Assembly (NCBI GenBank): GCA_045591265.1
Contig: JAZNSQ010000019.1
Coordinates: forward strand, 16,067 to 80,066
DNA length: 64,000 nucleotides
Source: Clostridia bacterium
GTDB taxonomy: Bacteria; Bacillota; Clostridia; UMGS1883
Direction of reading: 5' to 3'
Part shown: positions 12,885-13,169 of the stretch, piece by piece
Position numbering within the stretch: the stretch's first letter is position 1
How the letters are laid out: each line of letters begins with the position of its first letter
Translations under genes and position numbers: made by a program
The notes under the pieces: model-generated
Database searches by the model: none
What the model saw: the letters and a program-made list of their open reading frames with translations, nothing else
What the model was told of the DNA's origin: nothing

Positions 12885-13169
12885 ATGTTGGAAATTGCTA
12901 TTGGTATTATTTTAGGATGTTGCGCACTTGGTGCAGGTACTGCTATGATAGCAGGTGTCGGCCCCGGTATCGGTGAAGGTAATGCGGTTGCTAAAGCTTG
13001 TGAAGCTATCGGCCGTCAGCCTGAAAGCAAGGGTGACGTAACAACAACAATGCTTATGGGTTGTGCTATCGCAGAAACAACAGGTCTTTACGGTCTTGTT
13101 ATAGCAATCCTTTTGATATTTGCTGCTCCTAACTTATTTGTAAATTTACTTATGAGTACAATCGGTTAA
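12885..13169 (+). CDS. atpE: F0F1 ATP synthase subunit c with Na+-type ion-binding signature
   Basis: RBS GGAGG then ATG 12885. The hairpin is [17 protein letters not shown]...RQPE...[12 protein letters not shown], which aligns residue-for-residue with the Ilyobacter/Fusobacterium Na+ c-subunits. Confidence 0.9.

Follow-up and report, generated by a model that had tools for sequence, protein, structure and literature searches.

A putative Na+-binding, two-carboxylate rotor site in the F-type ATP synthase of a Clostridia bacterium and its gut relatives

In the c11 rotor ring of the Fusobacterium nucleatum ATP synthase, each Na+ ion is coordinated by Glu32, Glu65, the O-gamma atom of Ser66, the main-chain carbonyl group of Val63 and a water molecule, which is held in turn by Thr67 and the carbonyl of Ala64; Tyr70 and Ser66 both form hydrogen bonds to Glu65 (PMC3692424). 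Glu32 of this ring is constitutively protonated and energetically equivalent to a Gln (as shown by crystal structures at two pH values, calculated free energies and assays of H+ uptake), and Na+ alone is transported (PMC3692424). The F1Fo enzyme of Thermotoga maritima is strictly Na+-dependent and is protected by Na+ against dicyclohexylcarbodiimide (DCCD) (PMC7414866); a Q...ET motif correctly foretold Na+ dependence in Clostridium aceticum, and the Acetobacterium woodii enzyme is Na+-coupled with the same motif (PMC7911925). Here we describe the equivalent site in the c-subunit encoded by atpE in a 64,000-nucleotide stretch of DNA (hereafter the window) from a Clostridia bacterium (GenBank assembly GCA_045591265.1, 172,617-bp contig JAZNSQ010000019.1, positions 16,067 to 80,066), and examine a proposal, made from the nucleotide letters alone, that this subunit belongs to a Na+-translocating F-type ATP synthase (the original prediction). 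The comparisons below indicate that the enzyme is probably Na+-coupled, with a rotor ion site that appears to be of the Na+-binding, two-carboxylate type.

When all PDB chains were searched by phmmer with the window c-subunit as query, the top four matches were chains of three structurally characterised Na+ rotor rings: A. woodii c1, which comprises two hairpins (4bem_J; E 2.2e-41), A. woodii c2/3 (4bem_A; E 7.9e-28), the F. nucleatum ring (3zk1; E 3.6e-27) and the Ilyobacter tartaricus ring (1yce; E 9.5e-27). A. woodii c1 scores high because each of its two hairpins matches the query. The best-scoring H+ ring, that of the spinach chloroplast, gave an E-value of 6.2e-15, approximately 12 orders of magnitude weaker than those of the single-hairpin Na+ rings, and the match goes well past anything expected by chance. 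The alignments to the PDB chains contain zero gaps through both helices, residue n of the query corresponding to residue n+1 in F. nucleatum and I. tartaricus. In this register E31 of the window protein falls on E32 of F. nucleatum and Q32 of I. tartaricus, and I62, A63, E64, T65, T66 and Y69 fall on V63, A64, E65, S66, T67 and Y70, respectively, of both proteins. (Where a bare position is given below, it is in the numbering of these two rings.)

An identical register was obtained with MAFFT once four H+ rings were added, namely spinach (taken from the PDB search) and Bacillus PS3, Escherichia coli and Mycobacterium tuberculosis, the last three supplied as background knowledge. Within this set, hydroxyl side chains at positions 66 and 67 are confined to the Na+ rings, the H+ rings having Ala at the first and Leu, Ile or Ala at the second. 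Sequence identity of the window c-subunit with the Na+ rings is 61% (A. woodii c2/3), 58% (F. nucleatum) and 53% (I. tartaricus), compared with 19–43% for the H+ rings, three of which are the sequences supplied as background knowledge. The original prediction had assigned a Glu (in GPGIGEG) to the position of Q32, a conserved equivalent of E65 (in AIAETTGLY), Thr/Thr to positions 66 and 67 and a Tyr to position 70, and had likened the Glu–Glu pair and the hydroxyls to the two-carboxylate Na+ motif of F. nucleatum. Both strings are present, and every one of these assignments is upheld by HMMER and MAFFT alike; in the alignment with characterised Na+ and H+ c-subunits, the Glu stands at the equivalent position and not at a displaced one. 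As judged by sequence, the protein has all the features of the I. tartaricus-type Na+ site (Glu at 32, Glu65, hydroxyls at 66 and 67, and Tyr70), and the presence of Glu at both 32 and 65 in what is otherwise a complete predicted Na+ site places it in the two-carboxylate subtype typified by F. nucleatum.

Judged from the homologous rings of F. nucleatum and A. woodii, the Na+ ion would bind between two neighbouring c-hairpins. E64 and E31 are predicted to contribute one oxygen each to its coordination, T65 its hydroxyl and the neighbouring subunit the backbone carbonyl of I62; a further predicted ligand is one water molecule, likely hydrogen bonded to T66 and to the carbonyl of A63. Y69 and T65 are positioned to form hydrogen bonds with E64, which would lock the site, and E31 is presumably always protonated, behaving like the Gln of classical Na+ rings. 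Only Na+ would be exchanged at the interface with the a-subunit, opposite R202; this residue (in FRHYGN) sits on the conserved Arg of the LRLFGN motif in alignments with PDB chains and is the stator arginine. The A. woodii c2/3 Na+ ring (4bem_A) contains an ETTG-Y string identical to that of the window protein, and by this analogy the putative ligand role of Thr at position 66 is validated. In helix 1 the protein has a complete GxGxGxGxG repeat (G24-V-G26-P-G28-I-G30-E-G32), which suggests a ring of 11 subunits and therefore about 3.7 Na+ per ATP; the 2013 paper on the F. nucleatum ring warns that the rule leading from this motif to a stoichiometry is unproven (PMC3692424).

The two-glutamate site is not a peculiarity of the window genome. 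A word-indexed protein search returned 6,566 homologues of the c-subunit, of which the nearest 120 (85–100% identity; metagenome bins of Clostridia, Oscillospiraceae and Ruminococcaceae) were scored for the motif; E...(I/V)AETT..Y is kept in all 120, save for one sequence that has Ser for Tyr69. In species-representative genomes, a relative is encoded at no fewer than 449 of the loci scanned. The best 80 of these, which were examined further, are metagenome-assembled genomes from the guts of horse, goat, sheep, yak, buffalo, deer and human, labelled as Clostridia, Acutalibacteraceae, Oscillospiraceae, Eubacteriales, Christensenellales, Ruminococcus and similar, and the full GxGxGxGxG with E31, together with E64-T65-T66 and Y69, is present in every one (80/80). 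Finally, 1.84 billion cluster representatives were searched exhaustively with HMMER and the best 150 matches taken, 89 of them single-hairpin proteins; on pairwise alignment, the complete Na+ motif is found with Glu at 32 in 57 of the 89 and with Gln at 32 in a further 11. A Na+-type site with two glutamates is thus widespread and extends across the lineage. Since a single base change would convert the GAA codon of E31 to CAA (Gln), its strict conservation indicates purifying selection.

Part of this picture has a precedent. The legend to the supplementary alignment of Schulz et al. 2013 names Ruminococcus albus, T. maritima and Eubacterium siraeum directly after F. nucleatum (PMC3692424), and the order of names in the legend implies that these three were grouped with the presumed Na+ two-carboxylate rings. 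The motif, the mechanism and, as far as that legend conveys, the occurrence in relatives such as Ruminococcus and E. siraeum were already published in 2013.

Fused c-subunits, with 3 to 12 hairpins per polypeptide, are frequent among the closest cluster representatives, all of them outside the window. Examples are P0186 (1042 residues; 12 hairpins, all with Glu), P0249 (784 residues; 9 hairpins) and P0123 (968 residues), and there are many proteins of 3–5 hairpins in which the carboxylate is found in one or two hairpins only and the rest have Gln. These fused proteins resemble the multiplied rotor subunits of archaeal A-type ATPases and A. woodii c1.

Several points weigh against coupling to Na+. 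Two carboxylates do not in themselves confer Na+ specificity, the two-carboxylate rings of M. tuberculosis and Streptococcus pneumoniae being H+-driven, and every c-ring is intrinsically H+-selective, Na+ being used only where it is in large excess (PMC3692424). The N-type ring of Burkholderia pseudomallei (E30, E61, T62, M63 and Y66) was predicted to be Na+-coupled, but labelling with NCD-4 revealed it to be H+-selective (PMC5376962). In addition, genes of a Na+ cycle, which the original prediction suggested looking for elsewhere in the genome, were sought with Pfam among the approximately 50 genes of the window, and no Rnf, Nqr, Na+-decarboxylase, Na+-pyrophosphatase or antiporter genes were found there.

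Two alternatives to a Na+-coupled enzyme were considered, the first being that the rotor is promiscuous and, in the gut, translocates Na+ as well as H+, which has been reported for that of Methanosarcina acetivorans. The pH of the gut or rumen is generally held to fall as low as about 5.5–6, which raises competition from H+, and the small differences from F. nucleatum, in which Ser66 and Val63 are replaced by Thr and Ile, could alter selectivity one way or the other. A two-glutamate site may, moreover, be dual-coupled if its H+ selectivity is higher and both bound states are similarly populated (PMC3692424). However, the same ETT...Y string is found in the A. woodii enzyme (PDB 4bem), which is generally known as strictly Na+-dependent, and at approximately 0.1 M Na+ in gut fluid the ratio of Na+ to H+ would be 1e4–1e5 or more even at pH 5.5–6. 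We consider dual coupling to be unlikely.

The second alternative, that the enzyme is coupled to H+ in spite of its motif, seems to us very unlikely. It can call on the B. pseudomallei ring and on the H+-driven rings of M. tuberculosis and S. pneumoniae, as well as on the automated source annotations, which name the c homologues 'F-type H+-transporting ATPase subunit c'; such names are generic pipeline labels and constitute no test of H+ coupling. The H+-coupled two-carboxylate rings lack Thr67 and/or the Ser/Thr hydroxyl at 66 (B. pseudomallei has Met63 and M. tuberculosis has Ala-Ala), whereas the window protein has both, and its sequence is much closer to the proven Na+ rings than to the H+ rings (identities as given above). 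It is the hydroxyls at positions 66 and 67, and not the carboxylate pair, that matter for Na+ specificity, and both are present in the window protein. A Na+-coupled enzyme is the interpretation that we favour.

N-type operons have the order atpD-C-Q-R-B-E-F-A-G and no delta subunit. That the window encodes an N-type ('alternate F1Fo') ATPase, the c-subunits of which often have two carboxylates (PMC5376962), or an F/V hybrid of the A. woodii type, as the top PDB match to the double-hairpin c1 might suggest, can be rejected with near certainty, because the gene order is canonical and includes a delta subunit, the scores against the NCBIfam alt_F1F0 models are only 56 (a), 58 (c), 71 (gamma) and 26 bits (epsilon), with cut-offs of 302, 131, 282 and 100, respectively, and the window and 80 of 80 related loci have exactly one single-hairpin c gene per operon, with no extra double-hairpin c1 gene.

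The assignment of atpE itself is supported by matches to Pfam ATP-synt_C (PF00137; 1.7e-19, 70.2 bits, cut-off 24) and NCBIfam TIGR01260 (64.2 bits, cut-off 43.95), by the RQP loop (R44-Q45-P46), which is invariant across the MAFFT alignment, and by the membrane carboxylate E64. A mechanical list of open reading frames gives a longer atpE frame of 137 residues from 12756; such a start would fall within the gene before it, and homologues have only 93–96 residues, and we therefore take 12885 as the real start. The window c-subunit is an F-type rotor subunit encoded in a conventional F1Fo ATP synthase operon. The protein contains four cysteines (C12, C13, C39 and C60), of which C60, four residues before the active Glu, stands where I. 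tartaricus and F. nucleatum have Gln, and its C-terminal tail exceeds those of the characterised Na+ rings.

The nine genes identified by Pfam (Table 1) are arranged in the canonical order atpI-B-E-F-H-A-G-D-C, which is also that of 60 complete related operons; the operon is a canonical F-type ATP synthase operon. The original prediction was correct in including an atpI gene, which passes its Pfam cut-off, has no NCBIfam match and is located upstream of atpB in 78 of the 80 related loci. AtpI acts in assembly of the c-ring and is not itself one of the enzyme's subunits (PMC7911925). The a-subunits of the related genomes are mostly about 290–320 residues long. Relative to the Pfam and TIGR profiles the gamma subunit is short by approximately 20 residues, its residues 5–265 matching positions 2–282 of the Pfam profile. 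The operon is closed, 24 nucleotides past the atpC stop, by a strong terminator that it has in common with the convergent mscL gene.

Table 1. Coordinates of the atp genes, ion-site codons and associated signals, counted from the first nucleotide of the window
Feature	Position	Strand	Basis and remarks
atpI, 133 aa	11582..11983	+	Pfam ATP-synt_I 3.5e-6, 27.8 bits (cut-off 25.1)
atpB, a-subunit, 296 aa	11980..12870	+	Pfam ATP-synt_A 2.2e-35; TTG start overlaps the atpI stop
GGAGG ribosome-binding site of atpE	12873..12877	+	Direct sequence reading; 8 nt upstream of the ATG at 12885
atpE, c-subunit, 94 aa	12885..13169	+	Pfam, NCBIfam and PDB alignments; ATG start, 94 codons plus stop
E31, second carboxylate, codon GAA	12975..12977	+	Equivalent to F. 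nucleatum E32 / I. tartaricus Q32; gapless HMMER and MAFFT alignments
E64-T65-T66-G67-L68-Y69 codons	13074..13091	+	Predicted transported-ion carboxylate (E64, 13074-13076), two hydroxyl donors and site-locking Tyr (Y69, 13089-13091); HMMER and MAFFT
atpF, b-subunit, 168 aa	13188..13694	+	Pfam ATP-synt_B 1.5e-20
atpH, delta subunit, 179 aa	13678..14217	+	Pfam OSCP 2.2e-43
atpA, alpha subunit, 497 aa	14214..15707	+	Pfam ATP-synt_ab 1.8e-84; N- and C-terminal domains matched too
atpG, gamma subunit, 267 aa	15709..16512	+	Pfam ATP-synt 8.6e-79; TIGR01146 235 bits
atpD, beta subunit, 465 aa	16525..17922	+	Pfam; DELSDED at residue 385
atpC, epsilon subunit, 87 aa	17922..18185	+	Pfam ATP-synt_DE_N only (N-terminal beta-sandwich); without C-terminal helical hairpin
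Bidirectional intrinsic terminator	18209..18247	.	16-bp stem, A-run before, T-run after

The epsilon subunit lacks the C-terminal inhibitory helices, as the original prediction had also stated. Its PDB matches cover residues 1–83 of epsilon chains that are 133–139 residues long, it matches TIGR01216 over 84 of 130 positions with a score below the cut-off, and it is as long as the 87-residue Bacillus PS3 epsilon chain in 8yh8. Among related operons, each of the 60 complete ones has an epsilon subunit of 85–93 residues, and 84 of 85 homologues fall within this range. We looked for sequence encoding the helical domain after the atpC stop, in any frame, and found none. A frameshift or assembly artefact is ruled out as the origin of the short protein by this absence of downstream coding, by the adjacent terminator and by the length of the subunit in the 60 operons. 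The epsilon subunit is naturally truncated, and the truncation is fixed in at least 60 species-level genomes belonging to this lineage of gut Clostridia. NCBIfam holds an epsilon model of 88 positions (NF009983), and short epsilon subunits are therefore not new to curators. Epsilon subunits without the C-terminal domain are said to have been noted by Feniouk et al. in 2006 in Bacteroidetes, Chlorobi and bifidobacteria; our literature search returned no citable passage stating that some bacteria naturally lack this domain.

For assembly and coupling the N-terminal domain of epsilon is enough; auto-inhibition resides in the C-terminal domain, and in many anaerobes FoF1 serves as an ATP-driven pump (PMC8249445). 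Loss of the C-terminal domain therefore fits, and is consistent with, an enzyme that freely hydrolyses ATP to export Na+. The window also contains spoIIGA and a gene for a sigE-like sigma factor (52357–53990, minus strand), which indicates that the organism forms endospores. Because the epsilon subunit is without its inhibitory hairpin across the lineage, and because these are spore-forming, apparently fermentative gut Clostridia, the enzyme likely runs freely in the direction of ATP hydrolysis, pumping Na+ out of the cell and so generating a sodium-motive force. Animal and human guts are Na+-rich and of near neutral pH. Were Rnf or another Na+ pump encoded in the genome, ATP synthesis would also be possible. 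More tentatively, and as a proposal that we regard as possible and not as the probable outcome, a large lineage of uncultured gut Clostridia (at least 60 species-level genomes around Acutalibacteraceae/Oscillospiraceae) may have fixed the Na+ two-carboxylate c-ring and the non-inhibitory epsilon together, giving an unregulated, ATP-driven primary Na+ pump.

If the enzyme is indeed Na+-coupled, a sodium cycle runs the membrane energetics of widespread, uncultured Clostridia of herbivore and human guts, which would affect the modelling of ATP yields, of solute uptake and of sensitivity to ionophores (for example monensin in ruminants). If it also operates as a pump, this F-type enzyme would be equivalent in function to the V-type Na+-ATPase of Enterococcus hirae, and abundant gut fermenters would energise their membranes by sodium and not by protons. 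The lineage offers many natural variants of the predicted two-carboxylate Na+ site with Thr66 and Ile63, which should be useful for work on ion selectivity, and its general loss of the epsilon inhibitory domain is a natural test of what that domain is for. Current concepts are unchanged by these findings; mildly novel is that a predicted Na+ rotor and an epsilon subunit lacking the inhibitory domain go together across the lineage, which may mark a dedicated ATP-driven Na+ pump in a large group of uncultured gut Clostridia.

By Pfam, the remainder of the window encodes ABC and ECF transporters, truA, cvpA, mscL, ftsK, serS, recN, argR and NAD kinase, as well as L,D-transpeptidases, a Mn-catalase, a GH3 glycosidase, RNase R, smpB, tmRNA, spoIIGA, sigE and aminotransferases; V-type ATPase genes were not found among the approximately 50 genes scanned. 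A gene for a membrane protein of the RseC/MucC family (28815–29222, minus strand) belongs to a family often tied to Rnf or SoxR-reducing systems. An Rnf cluster at this gene was considered and rejected, its neighbours being recN, argR and NAD kinase with no Rnf genes nearby. The largest gene of the window, an open reading frame of 1328 residues (35244–39230, plus strand), has no Pfam match at E<=0.001. A trans-translation cluster (45826–48766, minus strand) comprises tmRNA (45826–46171; tag ANKNLAYAA), smpB (46210–46746) and RNase R (46589–48766). An 89-residue protein with two treble-clef zinc fingers (zf_Tbcl and zf_Tbcl_2) is encoded at 19601–19870 (minus strand), between the atp/mscL region and a sigma-factor gene, where it adjoins tRNA-Gly(CCC) (19954–20027). 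Near the end of the window, an open reading frame for an IS200-like Y1 transposase (62441–62950, minus strand) gives a weak Pfam match (26.2 bits, cut-off 23).

Comparison with characterised enzymes helps to place the window ATP synthase. The N-type c17 ring of B. pseudomallei (Schulz et al. 2017, PMC5376962) resembles the window ring in having two Glu residues (E30/E61), a Thr after the active Glu and a Tyr four residues later. It differs in having Met in place of Thr67, in being H+-selective by experiment and in forming a 17-mer encoded by an N-type operon, whereas the window operon fails every N-type test. T. maritima (Kuhns et al. 2020, PMC7414866) is, by contrast, a fermenting anaerobe with a Na+-dependent F1Fo, although it is a thermophile and belongs to a phylum other than that of the window organism. 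Rnf is the demonstrated partner Na+ pump in T. maritima, whereas none is seen within the 64-kb window. We take the T. maritima site to read GEG...AETTGIY, as in the window protein.

The c11 ring of I. tartaricus and Propionigenium modestum (PDB 1YCE) provides the prototype site, composed of Q32, the carbonyl oxygen of V63, E65, S66, T67 and Y70, and the window protein matches it at every position by equivalent or identical chemistry; the I. tartaricus site has a single carboxylate, with Gln32 where the window protein has Glu. The closest single-hairpin relative of the window c-subunit is A. woodii c2/c3 (PDB 4BEM), the C-terminal-helix site of which (AVAETTGIYG) has A-E-T-T-G-x-Y-G in common with it, including Thr at 66. 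In helix 1, A. woodii has Gln and the window protein Glu, and the A. woodii rotor adds a V-type-like double-hairpin c1 that is absent from the window operon. The F. nucleatum enzyme draws on Na+ from a glutaconyl-CoA decarboxylase, a partner not seen within the window, and has a full-length epsilon subunit (134 residues; 6q45_H) compared with the 87 residues found here. Between the two c-subunits, which align without gaps, position 66 is Thr in the window protein and Ser in F. nucleatum, position 63 is Ile and Val, respectively, and the C-terminal tail of the window protein is about five residues longer. In common with the window protein, the F. nucleatum c11 ring (PDB 3ZK1/3ZK2; Schulz et al. 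2013, PMC3692424) has the E32/E65 pair, Thr67, Tyr70 and the GxGxGxGxG repeat, and is likewise encoded in an F-type operon.

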